A stretch of DNA of 64,000 nucleotides from a virus: IMG/VR virus record IMGVR_UViG_3300032006_002011, positions 1 to 64,000 of that record; one strand, given 5' to 3'. The notes under the pieces were generated by a model. That model had not been told where the DNA came from, did no database searches, and was given only the letters and a program-made list of their open reading frames with translations. A program made the translations under genes and the position numbers. Shown here piece after piece: positions 1-10,074 of this stretch; position 1 is the stretch's first letter; every line of letters begins with the position of its first letter.

Positions 1-299
1 AGGATTTGTTTGGTCTCGGCCGCGGTTGTGTTGTAAACCTTCACTCGCAATCTTGCCTTGTTGGGCAATAGACTCAAGTCACTAACACACGCACCATCAC
101 GTACGGTTATAGTATAATATCCATAGTCGTTGTGAACCTCTACGTGCTTTGGTTTGCGTTCCTTCACATCCCACAACACATACCCATGACCACGTGGGAG
201 TTCTCCGTGGTTTTGCTGAATCATGCTACCCGAGTAAACTACAACCGGTTTACTTGGATTGAGTCTTCGTATCTTTACGTATTTTTCTTTAGTTTCCAT
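1..299 (-). CDS. C-terminal part of SbcD/Mre11-type nuclease (partial, runs off the window; may continue into an SbcC/Rad50-like ATPase)
   Basis: Not in the ORF track. Manual translation from ATG 299: METKEKYVKIRRLNPSKPVVVYSGSMIQQNHGELPRGHGYVLWDVKERKPKHVEVHNDYGYYTITVRDG...; YxGS is the motif that follows GxxH in SbcD/Mre11; frame is open to position 1. Confidence 0.8.
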   Translation of the reverse strand, partial: METKEKYVKIRRLNPSKPVVVYSGSMIQQNHGELPRGHGYVLWDVKERKPKHVEVHNDYGYYTITVRDGACVSDLSLLPNKARLRVKVYNTTAAETKQI

Positions 300-1224
300 C
301 AAGTGCTATTCTTAAAATTTCCTCACCAACTTGGGCATCCGTTAAAAATGGATTTAACTCAACATGACCACCTTCTGGAAAATAAACATTTGGACCCAAA
401 AATGGTTTACGAGTTTCCAGACTATTTGTGTCACCTCCATTTTGTTGCCACCCAATTCCCTTTGGGCCGAACAGCTGATAGATATAGTCGGTGGTTATTA
501 TTGTCTTTGTACCGAGTGCCGATGAAACATTTGTAAGGCATCCTTCACCCCCAATAACATAATCACAATTCTTCATCAAACTTGCAGTAAATGAAAATTT
601 GCTAGTTGAATTCAAACAAGGATAATTCTTTGAAACCTTCTCATCAATACCCAATGCAAACAACATAATTTTTGGGGAAATCTCCAGGCAGTTAATTATG
701 TCAAATACATTTCGTTTTCCACTTCCGTACCCAGTTCCATCTTCTCCACCCTCCGCACGATAATATTCCTCTTCAGTAAACAGAAAACTTTTTCTGTCCC
801 AATCCGATTGGTATCCTATTTTAATCAAGTCATCGTCCCAATCACCAATTTGCGTCAACTCCTCCATACTTCTTTGTATAGAATAATCGAGTTGAGGATT
901 TGTAAAAACTTCAAAGGTATCATTGAAATTTTCAATTCCACACATTCGTTGAAACTGAGAAACTGCTGACTCATACGGACTTAATGTAGACACATCATCA
1001 TTCATCAATTGATATACTACATCATAATCTACATTTGCCGTTTCCTTGTAATACACTCCGTCTATATAAGGATTGTTGATAAGCAACTCCATAGGTTGCA
1101 AATAATTGACGTCATAATGAACAATGCAATTTGGATTCCGTTCTTTAAGTTTCTTTGCGACACTGCTTGAAAAAATCACATCACCTATGTGGATGTTCCG
1201 ACATCTTATCAGAATATTAGTCAT
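289..1224 (-). CDS. Glycosyltransferase family 9-like (heptosyltransferase-like, GT-B fold)
   Basis: HIGDVIFSSSVAKKLK...ELLINNPYID N-terminal motif and C-terminal TASLMKNCDYVIGGEG...SALGTKTI; start reassigned to ATG 1224, which overlaps the upstream stop. Confidence 0.75.
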   Translation of the reverse strand: MTNILIRCRNIHIGDVIFSSSVAKKLKERNPNCIVHYDVNYLQPMELLINNPYIDGVYYKETANVDYDVVYQLMNDDVSTLSPYESAVSQFQRMCGIENFNDTFEVFTNPQLDYSIQRSMEELTQIGDWDDDLIKIGYQSDWDRKSFLFTEEEYYRAEGGEDGTGYGSGKRNVFDIINCLEISPKIMLFALGIDEKVSKNYPCLNSTSKFSFTASLMKNCDYVIGGEGCLTNVSSALGTKTIITTDYIYQLFGPKGIGWQQNGGDTNSLETRKPFLGPNVYFPEGGHVELNPFLTDAQVGEEILRIALDGN

Positions 1225-1921
1225 CACACACCTCCCATCCGTCAAGTACATACTTATCTGCCTTAGATTCAGGAACAAACAATGCTTCCGTATGATATTC
1301 TTGTAAGATTTGGTGTTTGTGAATATCACCCAACATCACCATGTCATACCCATCAAACATATACATCGGCACATCACCACCGACAATAATGTAACCCACG
1401 TCAGTTCTGCTTCTTTTAATTGCCCCATGATAAACTGCAACCTTTGTTGAAATTGATTTGTCGGTTATATCCTTTCCTCTGACATATTCACTTGGATCTT
1501 CAAATATACCGAACACACTAATTGCCACGTCACCAATTTTATAAACCCCAGTATCTCTTAAATAAAACAGATTGTCATTATCAAGCATATCAACGATTGG
1601 GGTCAATACATCCAATCTATCTGGATTGTTCAAGTTGCAATCGTGGTTTCCGGCAATTAATATTGTTGGATGTATTTCAGCACATTTATTAAAGAAGTCT
1701 GCAATCTCCGAAATGAGTTCAGGACTCATCTCCGTTTTTGCATGGGCAACATCACCACCAATAAAAATTATTGCGTTTTCAAGTGCATCATCTTCTAACT
1801 GCTTGTAAAAGTTTTCAAATACACTTCGGTATTCTTTATGACGCTTTACGTTTCTTAGGTGAATATCCGATACATGATAAATCTTTTCAACTTTTTTTAT
1901 CTTCGTGTCTAACTCATGCAT
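1217..1921 (-). CDS. SbcD/Mre11-type metallophosphoesterase nuclease, N-terminal part
   Basis: SDIH, GGD, GNHD, YHG and LGDIH phosphoesterase motifs; located next to the primase. Confidence 0.85.
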   Translation of the reverse strand: MHELDTKIKKVEKIYHVSDIHLRNVKRHKEYRSVFENFYKQLEDDALENAIIFIGGDVAHAKTEMSPELISEIADFFNKCAEIHPTILIAGNHDCNLNNPDRLDVLTPIVDMLDNDNLFYLRDTGVYKIGDVAISVFGIFEDPSEYVRGKDITDKSISTKVAVYHGAIKRSRTDVGYIIVGGDVPMYMFDGYDMVMLGDIHKHQILQEYHTEALFVPESKADKYVLDGWEVCDD

Positions 1922-2835
1922 AATTTTTGTTTCATCAATGCGTCAAATCCCATCACGGGGGTATTCCGAAGTTTTTCCACCATTCCTCGGAATCCGACGT
2001 CGGCGGCATCTTCGTTTCCCATTTTAACGAATCGCACCTTGATGTCCTCATTTAACAATGTTTCTGTAATTGCTACTGCATTTTTAATGGCATCTTCGTC
2101 AAGAACCACATAAACTTCAGAAACTTTGTTTTCAATCATTTTAATTTTCAATTTACTTGGGATATTTTTACCCAACAAAGCAATTGCGTTTCTCCGTATC
2201 GCAATCGCATCAAAAACTCCTTCACATAGCACAATGGGTTCGGAAAAATCTATTTGATTCTCAAACACCACTACATCTTTGCTGACTGGTGGATTTTTAT
2301 ATTTCAAATAAGCAGTTCCTGTAAAATCTCTTGCAATAAAATAATTTAATTTATTATCCCCATCAAATGACGGAACAATAATTCTACCCGCATAATCACC
2401 GTCAGAACAATATCCTATATCATATCTTTCAATATCATACGATTCAATATTTCGGTTAGATAGATAGTTCATTGCTTTTGTGTAAGAAAAATCCTTGTGT
2501 GCTTCGGTCAATCTTTTAAACTCATATGGCAATGACACATATTGTTCTTCGGTGTCTGCCAATTTCGTATTCTTGGGAAGTTTTACAATCTTCGATAATT
2601 CTGCAAAATAATTGGCAGGTACCTGCAACCTCTTAAACAATGCAAAGATGCTTCTTCCCTTTGCGTTGGTATCAATCCAACTCTGCCATCTCTGTGTGGT
2701 GAGATTTACTGCCAACTTAGGTTTTCTGTGATGTGAGAACGGACACATAAACATTGCCTCATCTTTTGAGACAATCTTACCTTCACCTAAAACTTTTTGT
2801 AATAAGGTAAGCAATTTCTGTTCGGAAATCCCCAT
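1909..2835 (-). CDS. DNA primase (Zn-binding plus TOPRIM domains)
   Basis: CPFSHH N-terminal motif, RIIVP, KYKNP, LCEGVFDAIA, LDEDA. Confidence 0.9.
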   Translation of the reverse strand: MGISEQKLLTLLQKVLGEGKIVSKDEAMFMCPFSHHRKPKLAVNLTTQRWQSWIDTNAKGRSIFALFKRLQVPANYFAELSKIVKLPKNTKLADTEEQYVSLPYEFKRLTEAHKDFSYTKAMNYLSNRNIESYDIERYDIGYCSDGDYAGRIIVPSFDGDNKLNYFIARDFTGTAYLKYKNPPVSKDVVVFENQIDFSEPIVLCEGVFDAIAIRRNAIALLGKNIPSKLKIKMIENKVSEVYVVLDEDAIKNAVAITETLLNEDIKVRFVKMGNEDAADVGFRGMVEKLRNTPVMGFDALMKQKLCMS

Positions 2836-3891: not shown

Positions 3892-6800
3892 TTAAGTGTC
3901 ATATTTCACCAAAAAATTAATTGGGTAGTTGGGAACTATCTTCACGGGTTTGCTTAACTTGGCAACCATTACCAAATCTAACCCACTGTATAATCCAACC
4001 GTGGTTACATACGGTGCCAGATAACTGCCCAATTGATCTTTTGCATCGTTCTCGCGATAGTCCACGAAATCTTGCAGTATTTCAATACCACGATTTTTAC
4101 CAGTTCTATCGTCCAAAAATTCTATTATTTGATACGCAACGGAACGTGTTTGTTTTATCGTTGCATTAGTAAACGTATCTATCAACCCATCAGTCAAATC
4201 TGTTCCGGTTCTGCCCACAAAATACCTAACAAGAAGTTTAGCATCCATGTGACTAACAACTCCGTCACCGTCTATATCAAGCAACCCACGTTCCTCCAAA
4301 GACTCCAACCTAGAAAGTATCAACTTATATTCATTTGCAGTAACCGTTCCTTCGGTTGAACGCAAAAGAACATTCATTAATACCACATCCTCCGACTCGG
4401 TTAAAACCAAATCATCATTTGGCCAACGAGTATTATTACCTTCCTCCATCTTAATGCCCGGAGCATAATCACCACCCGATGGAATTGTTAAAATCTGACC
4501 TACATATAAAGTCTCAGAACCAATTCCCGCATTGGCAGTTTGGATGGCATCCACAGTTACACCCGTAAACTTAGCAACTGACTGAATTGACTGAACTGAT
4601 CTAACAATGTGAACATAACCCGAAGAAAAGATCAGTTCGTCCCCAGGAACAATCGTATCATCGTACCTTAATTTATTACCAACAACCCCATTCGAATAAC
4701 TACGAATATCCAAAAATCCAAATGAAGACTCTACGGGTATCTTGCTTCGGGCATCTATATCATTTTTAGATGGATATGGTATGCCGTATTCTCTGCATAT
4801 TGTCTCCAATGTTTCCGAACCTACTACATATGTTTCCTTCGTATCATGTTTAATCTCCACCAGAGAACCTATCATATAACGATATATGTAAGCAAGATCC
4901 GTAATATCAAATTTCTTATCTACATTTACATCATAGTCAATATCGTCAAAAACAACAGATGTTGGATTCGTACTAACATTAAATTCGGAAGGTGAAACCG
5001 AACATAATATCTCATTCTCATATATTGCGTGTGTTCCACGATATGATACCTCAAATCCACTATCGGATGTTCCCGAAAACATATTTGAAAAATAATCAGA
5101 AGTATTCGTTATAACTGCTATTCCGTTCTTATAAAAAACATTTCCAACATAAACTCTCGATTGATCTCGTATTGATGCAACATCGTAGGCCAAGACTTTT
5201 CCTGCTATATCAATATCCATATTAGATAATCTACCCCATGCAATATCTCCATATTCGGAGTATATGGTAGAGCATTGCTCAAATAAACCTATATCCGCAC
5301 CCTCAAATGCCTCTACACCAGAGAGTGGAAAGTTTCCCATAATTGGACACCCTACATAGATATAATCAGAACTTAGTGTCACCGCAGTTCCATATTGATG
5401 CCTCACCCTGTGCGGATATTTATTCGTCTTTACGTTTGCCATCTTTTCTGCACCATCGGAGCCTATACGATAATAGTAAACATTTCCTTCCTCTGCACTT
5501 CGTTTTGTATAATAAACAAATTCTATGTCCTGTTCAAACCAACCGGTGGTTTCTGAGTTGTCTGCGATGTTTGTATCGACATCAACATAAAACCAAAGTT
5601 TGCCATCTTGAAACTTAGTCAAATCACGATATACTCCTCGGGTAACCGCACCCAAATTTTTTGTATATACATTAAGTCTACACCGAGAGTTTACCACTTC
5701 TCCTACATACGAAGTTCCGGATGAAATAAAATAAATCTTATTTGATGCGAGGGTTCCTGTTATTGTTACATGACCCATGAACTTATTATCTATATCATAT
5801 ATATCAATTGGAGACGGTGTGGCAGACGAATCTGTAACCACATCCGATAGCATCAATACACCGGGAGTAGTCCATACCGATGATATTATTCCTCGTTCAG
5901 TATCCGAAATCGCCACCTCAGGAGAAACTTCATATTCTCGGTGACCCCTCGGGAACTTAACCGAATGCAAAAGATTCTTATCAGTTTTAATAAAGTTTGC
6001 GGAAATCATAAACTCTGATATTAGGTCTAGATCAATAGTCATCGTATCAACTGATATTTTAACCGCAACATCGGGCATATCTCCACCCACATATATGCAC
6101 TCTGCATCTGTAAATACATTTACCTCAGATGTGTAGTATTTGTCTGATATATTCTTGGTCCCTCGTTTAAAGTCACGGACACCTACATTTTCACCACCAT
6201 CCAAAATTGAAATCTCACTTGCATCCGTACAGGGAGACCCAACTACAAAGTCCGTCCCTTTTAGTGATACACTACGGCCGTATTCACTTGAATATCTAAA
6301 CTCTTCATGTGGGTCAGAATACATCTTTTCAACAAATGAAAGTTTTCCATTTGTGGTGGAGTATACATAAGTTGCACCCGCACGATACTTGTCTTGTGTG
6401 TTGGAAGGATCGGTATACTCCCTGTCAAATGAATCACCAATAACCAGTGTATTCTCATTTGCATCCAACGATACTCCAAAGTTACCATCAACACTATAGT
6501 TATACTCATATGGATATTTCACACGTGAATTCCGTTGGGGTGTGTCATAATAAATTGGATTGATTGCCAAATTAATCCTAGATTGATGACCGACCAAAGT
6601 AGAATCTTTAGTGGTTCGGCCGAGGTATATATCATGGACTCCGTTTGTAAGTGTCAGTGCAAGTGTTCCTCCATCGATATGTGTTCCGTTGTGATTTACC
6701 AACTCTGTTTTAGATGACTCATTGAGTGGAGCATTAACACGATAAACAAACCCAGATTCGGCATCCGTGGCAGCTGCAATTGCCACCTTTATAAAAACCT

Positions 6801-9800
6801 CATTATCTTGTATTTCATAACTAATATCAGAAAATCCATCACCAAGGCCAACCGGGTCCGTATTAAAATTATATATACCATCTTTGGTTATATTATATGT
6901 GTGACGCCACCCAACTCCACAATCCGTAGGTTCATCTAACTTGCTCAACACACTACAATATTTAAATCGTGAACCCGGAGTCGTTGCATATATGGAGTTT
7001 GATGTCAACTTAACCCCCTCGCCCAGTCTACGAGAACCCGGAATCCTTATTACCTCAACCAACTCCCATGTCACATCACCCACGGCGTGAGCAGGAGACA
7101 TAGACCCATCTTCATACTCTGCATATCTCGGTGGTGGGAATCCAGTTACTGTTCCTTCGGTTGATATGGAAATTCCATCAAATGTTTCAATCTCCACCGC
7201 ATCAATGGAATCGCACGGTCCTTCTCTGTAGTCATCTGTATCAACTATATCATAAGGTGTCAATTTGCACTTGTTATCTACAATAACACCTGACTCACAT
7301 CCTACCGAACCCGATCTTTTAAAGTATATGTTCATGCTATACGGATTTCCGTAATATGTTATTGTGCCGAGAAGAATATTTCGGAAGTCATATACATCAA
7401 CCACATACGGTTGATTTCCATATTTTGTATCCGCATGAGAAAGTGATATTGTTCCGTTATATGTCCAAGATGATGACTTCACCCCCCAGTCCGAATCATC
7501 TATAACCAAGTCGGATGAAACTTCATATGTGTTAAACCCACTCTCGGTACACTCTTCTAACTCCAACTCAGGACCGGAAGTGTCCTTCAGTTGATGTCTA
7601 ATGTCGCACCTGCCCCCCTCAATTGAACCAAAAAATCTATCCCCAGTGGGAGTTGTAAAGTAAATAATGGACTGACCCGGATGACCCGAGTATGTAATGT
7701 GACCAACAAAGTTTTCATCTGCATCGTAAATATCAATTGGAAACGGTGTATTCGTAAGTGACGCATCGGATGGGGGAATTGATAGAATTCCCTCATATAA
7801 CCAACTAGACGAAACTACTCCACTATCTTGATCCCGTATCTCCGAGGTGGGTGATACTCTGTAATCATTTAAATCACTGGAAATTAATTTCCCAGACAAA
7901 GGTAACCCGTCCGATGGAGAAGATGAATCCCCCACTTTGGTCCCCGACATAACCAACTCAACAGGAAGAATGCATACGTGGTCATCAATCCTCCCATATA
8001 CACACGCAGAACTTTGGTCAGATGTTCTAAAATATAAATTCATGGATTTTGGTCGACCCGTATATGTTATGTGACCCACCAAGGTATTTGTGGAATCATA
8101 TACATCAACCGGATAAGGTGCAACTGATGTAGTCGAGTCTGAATCAGAAATTGACAATATTCCCGGTTTCATCCAGTTAGACGAAGTTACACCCGCAACT
8201 TTATCGTCTATCTTTTCGGAAAGGGACACTCGGTAGTCTGTGAACCCTGGTTCCGAACATTGATTTGGCAATATTCCTCCCGTCATTCTACACACATTAT
8301 TTTCAATAGTTCCACTTATGCAACTCGTCCCTCCCTCACCAAAAGAAAAATACAAACTCATAATCTTTGGTTTACCCGTATATGTTACATGGCCAAGGAA
8401 ATTATCCGATGAATCATATACGTCAACCGGATATGGGGATGAAGATTCTGACTGGTCTGCTGGGGAAGTTGCCAATATACCACTCATTGCCCACCCAGAT
8501 GTGGTTACTCCATTATCTTGATCTGATATGGGTCTGTCTGTAGAAATATCATATTGAATTAAACCCACCTCTGTACATCTCTTATACAATAGTTCACTAT
8601 CATCTCTATAAAAATGATTTAAGGTATCTGCGTTGGGTACAAGACTTGTAATGTTCCATTTAGAAATCCACTTATTATTTTTCTCAAGTATGTCACCCGA
8701 TGGTTTGCCTACATATACACCCTCACTATCAGACCACACATAATCATCATGCGAGTCAGAAATTCTCTTCCACGGATGATTTTCCGTTCGTACTCCCCGT
8801 TTAAACAAATATATCGCACCTTCGGACTTATTATGACCAGGTGCACCAACTGCCATATAATTTCCTTTTACTGACACCGAAGCACCAAACTCCGTTCCCG
8901 GTTCTCCCTCCAATACATTAACCAACCCCCAGTGGTCTGCACCTCCCTTTTCCTTATCATATACAAACACATGGCCAGTTGTACCGTTTTTACTACACAT
9001 TCCTCTGATGTGTGATTTTGAAGATCCTATTACACAGGTATTATGATTTAATTCAATCGCATCACCGAAATTATCATTTACGGAGTAATCTTCATTTACA
9101 AGAAGTCCCTCAAGTTCCGTCATCAAAAACCCCGTATTATCATTCTGTAATTCAATTGATAATCCGTTTTGCGTAAATGGATTTGTGAATTGTCGCAATA
9201 TCCTAAACTCACCCGTTTCATCATCCAACTTATACATAATTGCACGACCACTGTTTACTTCAGTTGGTGCATCTTCCATGACAGGTTGACCCGATAAAAA
9301 ATATTTTCCAGCAGATGCAAGTTTATACCCAAACGTTAAATCATTAAAATCAAATATCTTATTATTTTTATCAATCTTAGTAACACCAGATACACTACCC
9401 GACACTTCTTTAATCTCATTAAAAGACGATGTACTAATTACAAGATTTGTCGCACCATCATCTACAATTTCCAAAACTCCATAGGGAGAACTATAATCTC
9501 TAATTCTAAATTCACCTGGTTTGATTTTTTCTCCCATCTGCGAAGAATCAAACTGAACCACTATTATATCGTCCGAAATAAATCTTCGTTCATATTGACT
9601 GGGAGATTCTTTGTTAAATATCTGATTTTCCTCTTTGGACTGCATCATATAATTACCGGTCTCTGACCCAAATACCATTAGTGGGTTTTTAACATTACTA
9701 CCCGTGGCACTCATGGACGGACTGACACCATAATCATTATAGAACAAGTGTTTTATTGAATTATAGACCACGCGTTGGTATGTCCCATCTGGATTGGTGA

Positions 9801-10074
9801 ATTCGTGGGAAGAATCGTGCAGTTTATGACCCGTAGGATAAAATGTATCAGACGCATCGTATCGTTTTCCCCGACTAACTTTCAATGAAGTAGTTCTCTT
9901 CGATTGCTCGGGTGCAAGGATTGTTTGTTCGTCTATAAATAATGACAAGGGACCGGTTGAACTTTCCTGTTCAAGCAAAATTTCATCAGTAGAAGTTATG
10001 TTATCATAATTCCACTTTTTATGAGTTTTGAATCTCCTAACCGATTTGTCAGAAACTTTCAACGGCTTTATCAT
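3892..10074 (-). CDS. Large virion (tail/baseplate) protein with FG-GAP repeats, internal ~95-aa repeats, LysM and dockerin/EF-hand-like motifs
   Basis: FG-GAP-like FGASVSVKGNYMAVGAPG; LysM-like HIVRSVQSIQSVAKFTGVTVDAIQTAN...LYVGQILTIP; DVNVDKKFDITD and DIDGDGVVSHMD loops; C-terminal PYVTTVGLY...VAKLSKP shared with the next gene. Confidence 0.75.
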   Translation of the reverse strand: MIKPLKVSDKSVRRFKTHKKWNYDNITSTDEILLEQESSTGPLSLFIDEQTILAPEQSKRTTSLKVSRGKRYDASDTFYPTGHKLHDSSHEFTNPDGTYQRVVYNSIKHLFYNDYGVSPSMSATGSNVKNPLMVFGSETGNYMMQSKEENQIFNKESPSQYERRFISDDIIVVQFDSSQMGEKIKPGEFRIRDYSSPYGVLEIVDDGATNLVISTSSFNEIKEVSGSVSGVTKIDKNNKIFDFNDLTFGYKLASAGKYFLSGQPVMEDAPTEVNSGRAIMYKLDDETGEFRILRQFTNPFTQNGLSIELQNDNTGFLMTELEGLLVNEDYSVNDNFGDAIELNHNTCVIGSSKSHIRGMCSKNGTTGHVFVYDKEKGGADHWGLVNVLEGEPGTEFGASVSVKGNYMAVGAPGHNKSEGAIYLFKRGVRTENHPWKRISDSHDDYVWSDSEGVYVGKPSGDILEKNNKWISKWNITSLVPNADTLNHFYRDDSELLYKRCTEVGLIQYDISTDRPISDQDNGVTTSGWAMSGILATSPADQSESSSPYPVDVYDSSDNFLGHVTYTGKPKIMSLYFSFGEGGTSCISGTIENNVCRMTGGILPNQCSEPGFTDYRVSLSEKIDDKVAGVTSSNWMKPGILSISDSDSTTSVAPYPVDVYDSTNTLVGHITYTGRPKSMNLYFRTSDQSSACVYGRIDDHVCILPVELVMSGTKVGDSSSPSDGLPLSGKLISSDLNDYRVSPTSEIRDQDSGVVSSSWLYEGILSIPPSDASLTNTPFPIDIYDADENFVGHITYSGHPGQSIIYFTTPTGDRFFGSIEGGRCDIRHQLKDTSGPELELEECTESGFNTYEVSSDLVIDDSDWGVKSSSWTYNGTISLSHADTKYGNQPYVVDVYDFRNILLGTITYYGNPYSMNIYFKRSGSVGCESGVIVDNKCKLTPYDIVDTDDYREGPCDSIDAVEIETFDGISISTEGTVTGFPPPRYAEYEDGSMSPAHAVGDVTWELVEVIRIPGSRRLGEGVKLTSNSIYATTPGSRFKYCSVLSKLDEPTDCGVGWRHTYNITKDGIYNFNTDPVGLGDGFSDISYEIQDNEVFIKVAIAAATDAESGFVYRVNAPLNESSKTELVNHNGTHIDGGTLALTLTNGVHDIYLGRTTKDSTLVGHQSRINLAINPIYYDTPQRNSRVKYPYEYNYSVDGNFGVSLDANENTLVIGDSFDREYTDPSNTQDKYRAGATYVYSTTNGKLSFVEKMYSDPHEEFRYSSEYGRSVSLKGTDFVVGSPCTDASEISILDGGENVGVRDFKRGTKNISDKYYTSEVNVFTDAECIYVGGDMPDVAVKISVDTMTIDLDLISEFMISANFIKTDKNLLHSVKFPRGHREYEVSPEVAISDTERGIISSVWTTPGVLMLSDVVTDSSATPSPIDIYDIDNKFMGHVTITGTLASNKIYFISSGTSYVGEVVNSRCRLNVYTKNLGAVTRGVYRDLTKFQDGKLWFYVDVDTNIADNSETTGWFEQDIEFVYYTKRSAEEGNVYYYRIGSDGAEKMANVKTNKYPHRVRHQYGTAVTLSSDYIYVGCPIMGNFPLSGVEAFEGADIGLFEQCSTIYSEYGDIAWGRLSNMDIDIAGKVLAYDVASIRDQSRVYVGNVFYKNGIAVITNTSDYFSNMFSGTSDSGFEVSYRGTHAIYENEILCSVSPSEFNVSTNPTSVVFDDIDYDVNVDKKFDITDLAYIYRYMIGSLVEIKHDTKETYVVGSETLETICREYGIPYPSKNDIDARSKIPVESSFGFLDIRSYSNGVVGNKLRYDDTIVPGDELIFSSGYVHIVRSVQSIQSVAKFTGVTVDAIQTANAGIGSETLYVGQILTIPSGGDYAPGIKMEEGNNTRWPNDDLVLTESEDVVLMNVLLRSTEGTVTANEYKLILSRLESLEERGLLDIDGDGVVSHMDAKLLVRYFVGRTGTDLTDGLIDTFTNATIKQTRSVAYQIIEFLDDRTGKNRGIEILQDFVDYRENDAKDQLGSYLAPYVTTVGLYSGLDLVMVAKLSKPVKIVPNYPINFLVKYDT

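Follow-up and report, generated by a model that had tools for sequence, protein, structure and literature searches.

A phage Mre11-Rad50 gene encoded in two pieces, with a GT9-like glycosyltransferase gene in what was probably a homing slot

Why would a DNA-repair nuclease that is normally made as a single chain be encoded by two genes, with a glycosyltransferase-like gene lying between them? The question is raised by the first 1921 nucleotides of a 64,000-nucleotide stretch (hereafter, the window) that starts at base 1 of the 77.6-kb IMG/VR contig IMGVR_UViG_3300032006_002011, from an uncultured marine phage. An initial annotation, made from the letters of this DNA, had described an SbcD/Mre11 nuclease gene split inside its catalytic domain, with a glycosyltransferase gene in the gap. 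The explanation that we consider probable is that a fused Mre11-Rad50 gene was split long ago by a homing cassette and that the slot was later taken over by the gene for a GT9-like glycosyltransferase.

All genes of the locus lie on the minus strand. The N-terminal part of the nuclease (N-half; 1217..1921, 234 amino acids) carries the complete set of phosphoesterase metal-ligand motifs I to V (DxH, GD, GNHD, H and GDxH, read in the sequence as DIH, GGD, GNHD, YHG and GDIHK), the residues of which are invariant across a 41-sequence alignment, followed by a tail of 25-30 residues. Motif V (GDIHK, residues 198-202, 1316..1330), which aligns with the GDIHK of contiguous relatives, is the last metal-binding motif ahead of the break; residue 204 closes GDIHKHQ, and the frame stops 30 residues further on. 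The C-terminal part (C-half) comprises the remainder of the nuclease domain, the capping domain and a Rad50/SbcC ATPase, but is incomplete here because the window begins at contig base 1, leaving 99 amino acids visible (1..299; open reading frame (ORF) 299-3). Its translation reads METKEKYVKIRRLNPSKPVVVYSGSMIQQNHGE... and contains motif VI (YSGS, residues 22-25, 225..236), which aligns with the Y-x-G-S of contiguous relatives. The gene between the halves, referred to below as the cargo (289..1224, 311 amino acids), starts within the end of the N-half through an 8-nucleotide overlap (ATGACTAA, 1217..1224), and the C-half starts within the end of the cargo through an 11-nucleotide overlap (ATGGAAACTAA, 289..299), the three ORFs occupying three different frames. 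This layout, its overlaps and all coordinates are as first annotated. The N-half matches Pfam Metallophos (9.3e-9) and positions 18-222 of the PHROG 100 'SbcD-like' profile, and the C-fragment matches positions 224-303 of the same profile; the C-fragment is thus the direct continuation of the N-half, and the nuclease is indeed in two pieces, broken inside its phosphoesterase domain. The proposal that a direct repeat of GATG is a signature of insertion has to be abandoned, since in relatives just the ATG is conserved.

The gene that was broken is larger than the window reveals. A locus nearly identical to the window contig, L002 (97% identity in the N-half, 98% in the cargo and 100% in the C-fragment), contains a C-half of 869 amino acids that matches the PHROG 77 SbcC-like profile (3.2e-46) as well as SMC_N. 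The ancestral, intact gene is a single-chain fusion of Mre11 and Rad50 (SbcD-SbcC) of about 1050 amino acids, uninterrupted in most relatives. In relatives that share about 50% identity, a single protein of this length carries Metallophos, AAA_23 and SMC_N domains, and among the best 150 phmmer matches in a search of 1.84 billion representative proteins most measure 1040-1070 amino acids. The termini of contiguous relatives match solved Mre11/SbcD and SbcC/Rad50 structures; in one of them, L036, AAA_23 (1.1e-10) and SMC_N were detected together with similarity to the PDB structures of SbcC (6s6v_C, 1.5e-9) and Rad50. The fused Rad50/SbcC ATPase is therefore documented through L036 and L002, the window itself holding the first 99 residues of the C-half. 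The Mre11-type fold, a nuclease sandwich plus capping domain, was recovered in an AlphaFold2 model of the uninterrupted L089 protein, rather than of the window's two chains together (residues 1-400; predicted local distance difference test (pLDDT) 85; Foldseek matches to 3qg5 at 6.6e-13, E. coli SbcD 6s6v at 3.3e-11, and 7dog). The original naming of the gene as SbcD/Mre11 is accordingly correct for the nuclease part, and the contiguous homologues looked for in relatives exist; a plain SbcD/gp47 it is not, being part of an Mre11-Rad50 fusion of about 1050 amino acids.

Where the gene broke is well defined. In uninterrupted proteins, 10-22 residues separate GDIHKxQ from YxGS (for example GDIHKRQILQEYDPQNGKPIVSYCGS). 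In the alignment, the split forms break within this loop between motifs V and VI, after LQEY, and at the break the N-half gains a tail of about 25 residues (HTEALFVPESKADKYVLDGWEVCDD, residues 210-234, 1220..1294) while the C-half gains a head of about 16 (METKEKYVKIRRLNPS, residues 1-16, 252..299) that precedes the conserved KPVVVYSGS. In the L089 model, the loop is flanked by strands of the nuclease sandwich at residues 202-205 and 230-233, such that all metal ligands fall in the N-half, while the C-half receives the capping domain, Rad50 and some three more strands of the core. The tail is missing from contiguous relatives with short loops and is homologous to the tails of splits that carry an endonuclease gene. 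Across the splits, tails share the pattern E..h.h.E..h...Y...GW and heads the pattern K.Y/I.K.KR; tails are mostly acidic (-3 to -12, with a single exception at +3), and heads are basic in L085, L087 and L082 (+2 to +5), strongly so in L085 and L087, and weakly basic in the window. Two halves bearing extra peptides at the break are what is expected of fractured genes that lack inteins. Two tailed N-halves from other relatives, P0127 (551 amino acids) and P0171 (545 amino acids), additionally contain an intein of about 315 residues at motif III, inserted between GNHD and the following C, which starts with CFTGEHEV, includes the LAGLIDADG-like LLGFSFADG and ends in VAGN before the next C; the same gene has thus been struck by both an intein and the splitting cassette.

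The arrangement is neither accidental nor confined to one contig. The order N-half, cargo, C-half was found in all 33 loci of the window's clade in a first scan and in every one of the 37 loci whose cargo shows 51% identity or more, on independent IMG/VR contigs. The 8-nucleotide overlap between N-half and cargo is present in 32 of the 33 loci, the remaining one having GTG at this position, and the overlap between cargo and C-half measures 8, 11 or 14 nucleotides in all 33. Median pairwise ratios of nonsynonymous to synonymous substitution rates (dN/dS; 219 pairs) were 0.08 for the N-half core, 0.18 for the tail, 0.18 for the cargo, 0.18 for the head and 0.08 for the rest of the C-half, figures that are rough because dS is near saturation (~1.0-1.4). 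All three genes, and the tail and head peptides with them, are under purifying selection, as had been anticipated for the two halves. The recurrent layout and this selection together exclude misassembly, the layout being repeated in 37 contigs, as well as a decaying relic.

What broke the gene is suggested by other lineages. The initial annotation had seen no homing endonuclease, which is correct for the window; in relatives, however, endonuclease-like genes lie at exactly the same break. In L082 (LR756508.1, a 484-kb phage; 116547-129233), a 243-amino-acid N-half with the tail ..EYEVEEMVVEEDELEKYLNSGWKL.. is followed by a 305-amino-acid ORF in the gap and then by an 861-amino-acid C-half starting ..DDKYRVKRVWPEAVFSGS. 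The ORF combines zinc-ribbon/NUMOD-like repeats, a DNA-binding part that matches PHROG 1271 'HNH endonuclease' (3.5e-15), with a TnsA-like PD-(D/E)xK domain whose score of 27.2 bits exceeds the Pfam cut-off; its C-terminal nuclease domain also shows similarity to an 'endonuclease' of Bacillus phage Moonbeam and, at 27.5% identity (6e-5), to Synechococcus-phage 'head completion' proteins of the T4 gp4 type. Cysteine-rich, NUMOD-like ORFs of the same kind occupy the gap in L035 and L074, where they are cut at contig ends. A scan of viral contigs for a full-length endonuclease of the L035 type returned just the cut-off contig of L035 itself, and a search for relatives of the L074 slot gene gave one further fragment and no more. 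Elsewhere the slot appears to be in decay or closed: L087 has a 103-codon Vsr-like frame without a start codon in the gap, L085 retains a remnant of about 105 nucleotides of a Vsr-like frame between the N-half stop and the C-half start, and in L089 and L090 the gene is uninterrupted and carries an in-frame scar, GDIHKPNQTLQEYSCEELVVNESKLTTKKIKHIKPAIKYSGS, in which half the tail and the greater part of the head survive.

The split state is also mobile. It is scattered on trees of the N-half core, where well-supported branches force at least 4 to 6 changes, and split and uninterrupted forms repeatedly emerge as sisters (L035/L088, support 98; P0137/P0164, 100; P0140/P0168, 98; L087/L089, 94). 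Tailed N-halves fall into at least nine separate clusters at 50% identity. Over nucleotides 60-270 of the gene, the DNA of the split L035 matches that of the short-looped L088 at 97-100% identity, but across the final 300 nucleotides ahead of the break identity is only about 80%, a drop of the kind expected from gene conversion next to a homing site. Both a patchy distribution and tracts of recombination next to the insert are thus found, and on these sequence comparisons the break site appears to be a hot spot that has been used repeatedly, by several types of endonuclease.

The gene now in the slot of the window's clade has a different character. An AlphaFold2 model of the cargo (from a 44-sequence alignment; pLDDT 89.6, predicted template modelling score 0.89) has the GT-B fold, and Foldseek placed GT9 enzymes on top, with 3tov (2.3e-9) followed by WaaF, WaaC and TibC, in agreement with the first reading of the gene as GT9-like. 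The likeness to these enzymes (WaaC, WaaF, TibC; PDB 2h1h, 1psw, 4rap, 3tov) lies in the two-Rossmann-domain GT-B fold (E 2e-9 to 1e-6); sequence identity is merely 10-12%, and the cargo has no Pfam Glyco_transf_9 match, for which reason we call it GT9-like and not a member of GT9. At E values up to 0.1, it has no Pfam match other than DUF354 (0.039), nor has it a PHROG match; there is no paralogue in the window, and a cargo-like protein is encoded in none of 50,697 cultured-phage records. The 131 homologues that we found are metagenomic and sort cleanly by location: those with at least 51% identity all lie in the slot (37 of 37), those with 40% or less all lie elsewhere (38 of 38), and among homologues at 29-40% identity the nuclease halves never adjoin. 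On the cargo tree, a single branch with support 100 separates slot from free copies, the slot copies forming one clade, and on the N-core tree the cargo-bearing loci are monophyletic (support 99). It therefore appears from the sequences that the cargo was captured once, from a free-standing, glycan-related phage gene family. In the one free-standing locus inspected closely (L165, 1662-9360), the homologue lies amid a sugar-gene cluster that includes a PfkB kinase, a UDP-glucose dehydrogenase, epimerases/dehydratases and genes of the GT7-like and GT2 kinds. In the clusters of L165 and L171 around free homologues, the epimerases/dehydratases are two in number and of the NAD type, and a KAS III-like enzyme is present too; these clusters look like a phage kit for building glycans.

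Parts of this picture have precedents. The intein-less form with an endonuclease is already known: Dassa et al. (2009; PMC2677866) described an SbcD-like exonuclease split into two ORFs without an intein, with about 25 extra residues at the end of the upstream ORF and about 9 at the opening of the downstream one, between consecutive conserved motifs, and with a Vsr-like homing endonuclease gene between the halves that overlaps the downstream half. L087 and L085 are of that type, and the window shares with it the two intein-less SbcD-like halves and their extra peptides; where the locus of Dassa et al. holds a Vsr-like endonuclease, however, the window's clade holds a long-kept GT9-like gene. 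The same authors reported marine phage genes of DNA metabolism that are fractured with split inteins and have a free-standing endonuclease gene between the halves. These genes, too, are broken around a slot, but their products are rejoined by protein splicing in trans, whereas the tail and head of the window measure 25 and 16 residues and lack intein blocks. In Aeromonas phage Aeh1, the nrdA gene is split by mobE (Friedrich et al., 2007, PNAS, as cited in PMC3045599), so that, as with the genes discussed here, an essential enzyme has been fragmented by a free-standing homing endonuclease gene into separately translated pieces with unique tails. The Aeh1 enzyme is a ribonucleotide reductase, its HNH endonuclease is still present, and the function of its tails was tested directly, whereas a function for those of the window is deduced by analogy. 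Those tails are essential for activity, being needed for higher-order assembly and not for pairing of the a and b fragments (Crona et al., 2011, Nucleic Acids Res 39:1381; PMC3045599), which cautions against reading the tail and head of the window simply as a clasp. No paper describing a glycosyltransferase in such a slot was found in the limited collection of literature that was searched. Whereas Dassa et al. described one locus, what is new here is that the gene is an Mre11-Rad50 fusion, that one hot spot shows a series of endonuclease types, remnants and re-fusion scars, and that a glycosyltransferase-like gene is present in the slot across a whole clade. An endonuclease between the halves was found only in other lineages, and neither in the window nor in the 37 loci of its clade, which makes the window locus a variant, not a member, of the genes fractured by homing endonucleases.

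Taken together, these observations suggest the following history. A free-standing homing endonuclease gene would have fractured Mre11-Rad50 in the surface loop between motif V and YxGS, and in the window's clade the endonuclease slot would have been overtaken once by a glycosyltransferase gene copied from the free-standing phage family. The notion that the junction simply accepted a cargo gene is thus right about the gene that it contains, and the simple acceptance is better replaced by a slot that was most likely taken over. The three genes could be translated from one message, by termination and reinitiation at the 8- and 11-nucleotide overlaps. The 234-residue N-half and the 869-residue C-half would reassemble noncovalently into a working nuclease by complementing the nuclease sandwich, perhaps aided by the mostly acidic tail and the basic head, as in Aeh1 NrdA, and the glycosyltransferase would be a passenger that serves phage glycan chemistry and not the nuclease.

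Several observations weigh against parts of this account. No remnant of an endonuclease was found in any of the 37 clade loci that bear the glycosyltransferase, so that the case for replacement comes from homology of the tail, the head and the break point. The scar loop of L089 falls in a low-confidence region of its AlphaFold2 model (pLDDT 56-61) without secondary structure, and the contrast in charge between tail and head is weak across the window's clade (mean tail -3.2, mean head +1.3), which leaves a clasp formed by tail and head as a hypothesis only. The near-saturated dS that makes the dN/dS values rough applies to all estimates of selection given above. Finally, the uninterrupted proteins P0129, P0168, P0184 and P0187 carry tail and head as an in-frame insert of 36-50 residues, such that these peptides may predate the endonuclease. 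Such proteins could be either re-fusions after loss of the endonuclease or representatives of a module older than it.

This last point leads to the alternative that fares best, which we regard as possible but not probable, namely that tail and head are a small in-frame insert module of older date, in whose hairpin first the endonuclease and then the glycosyltransferase gene landed. Uninterrupted proteins with the homologous insert (1083-1101 amino acids) occur in several lineages, and loop length is continuous, with values of 11-12, 17-24 and 36-50 residues. Against this, two of the long-insert forms are sisters of split forms (P0168 of P0140, support 98; L089 of L087, support 94), L089 lacks the YL..GW part as a deletion scar would predict, and in L035 as compared with L088 the insert enters a short-loop background along with the endonuclease.

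A second alternative concerns function rather than origin, and holds that the glycosyltransferase is a partner of the nuclease or of DNA metabolism, acting in sugar modification of DNA or in modification of the nuclease, with the slot selected for co-expression. The geometry of the coupling is strictly kept over about 50% protein divergence, and the cargo sits within a module of primase, RuvC-like and Mre11-Rad50 genes. The DNA glucosyltransferases of phage T4 have the GT-B fold too. However, the top structural matches of the cargo are GT9 heptosyltransferases, its free-standing homologues lie amid sugar-nucleotide enzymes and other glycosyltransferases and not amid DNA genes, and conservation of the overlaps is explained equally well by the need to keep the C-half translated. 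We therefore consider such a partnership doubtful. A related and somewhat more speculative idea, to which we give slightly less weight, is that the homing slot, lying inside an essential gene, acts as a protected landing pad that leaves its non-selfish cargo 'addicted' to the genome and expressed alongside the replication genes, or that the cargo acts on DNA or on the nuclease directly. A gene in the slot could be hard to delete because translation of the C-half would rely on the 11-nucleotide overlap with the gene upstream.

It is less likely still that insertion of the glycosyltransferase gene was what broke an until then intact Mre11-Rad50 gene, with no endonuclease stage. The complete lack of endonuclease remnants in the clade and the tightness of the overlaps at the start and stop of the cargo would fit such an independent insertion. 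The break, however, lies at the same residue position (after LQEY) as in distant splits of the endonuclease type, and splits bearing endonucleases or their remnants have a homologous tail (..E..h.h.E..h...Y...GW..) and a homologous head (K.Y.K.KR); an independent insertion would not recreate this shared break, tail and head, which makes it improbable.

Phage genes are commonly interrupted by group I introns and inteins, and in this gene family an intein does occur elsewhere, at motif III of P0127 and P0171; that the halves become a single chain again, whether through splicing of RNA or of protein or through ribosomal bypass, is nevertheless very improbable at this junction. A cmscan search against Rfam for group I or II introns at E values up to 1 gave no match in the four split loci L001, L082, L035 and L074, and there is no space for an intron core, since coding sequence fills the whole interval and the starts and stops of adjoining genes overlap. 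Pfam scans of the window detected no intein families. A split intein would be expected to have N and C blocks of about 100 and 35 residues and a +1 nucleophile, and splicing of this kind is not expected of a 25-residue tail and a 16-residue head, which are far too short, lack intein blocks and are selected as protein. We know of no precedent for a ribosomal bypass of 930 nucleotides, and bypass, like an intein, was rejected given the peptide lengths and the full coding density; the initial impression that neither intron nor intein is present therefore stands. That the N-half is a decaying relic beside a Rad50-like C-half that works alone, or that the layout is an assembly artefact, is scarcely credible given an N-core dN/dS of 0.08, motifs intact across 33 loci, at least nine 50%-identity clusters of tailed N-halves and 37 independent assemblies.

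The surroundings of the locus are those of a replication module. Directly upstream of the N-half lies a DNA primase gene (1909..2835; PHROG 47, 1.7e-35) whose end overlaps the N-half start by 13 nucleotides (1909-1921), so that four genes in a row overlap, from the primase through the N-half and the cargo to the C-half. The primase neighbour is common to contiguous and split relatives, and a RuvC-like resolvase gene was also identified upstream of the N-half by Pfam and PHROG. In a scan of L002 (4500-10600), promoter-like sites were no commoner than chance, and no plus-strand terminator-like site was found between the starts of the N-half and the C-half. Directly 3' of the C-half in L002 (10251-11321), a position shortly past the point where the window's contig stops, lies a gene for a 356-amino-acid protein with Zeta-toxin/AAA_33 kinase-like domains (2.5e-11). 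Further along the window, an ORF of 2060 amino acids on the minus strand (3892-10074) contains several internal repeats of about 100 residues (..SSW...GIL.....D......P.P.D.YD....L.GHITY.G.P..) and probably encodes a virion fibre or adhesin-like protein. Only four cultured-phage records match the N-half. The window's replication module is close to no cultured phage: the closest cultured-phage primases, those of Flavobacterium phage vB_FspM_immuto and Microcystis phage Mel-JY01, are about 39.5% identical.

In summary, an uncultured marine phage encodes as two genes a DNA-repair nuclease that is normally a single chain, and its halves, including the 869-residue partner known from L002, should be annotated together as one split Mre11-Rad50, instead of separately under the names truncated SbcD and 'AAA protein'. 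The relatives provide a natural life-cycle series of a splitting cassette, from the uninterrupted gene through intact endonuclease, decayed endonuclease, remnant and in-frame scar to replacement by cargo. The two-piece Mre11 nuclease domain, with its short tail and head, is a natural candidate for a self-assembling split-enzyme system. Should the landing-pad or direct-action idea prove true, gene fracture would be a route by which phages fix new genes. On the history that we favour, a gene that selfish DNA has split can remain in pieces and yet functional in the long term, and an ordinary metabolic gene can come to occupy the gap.

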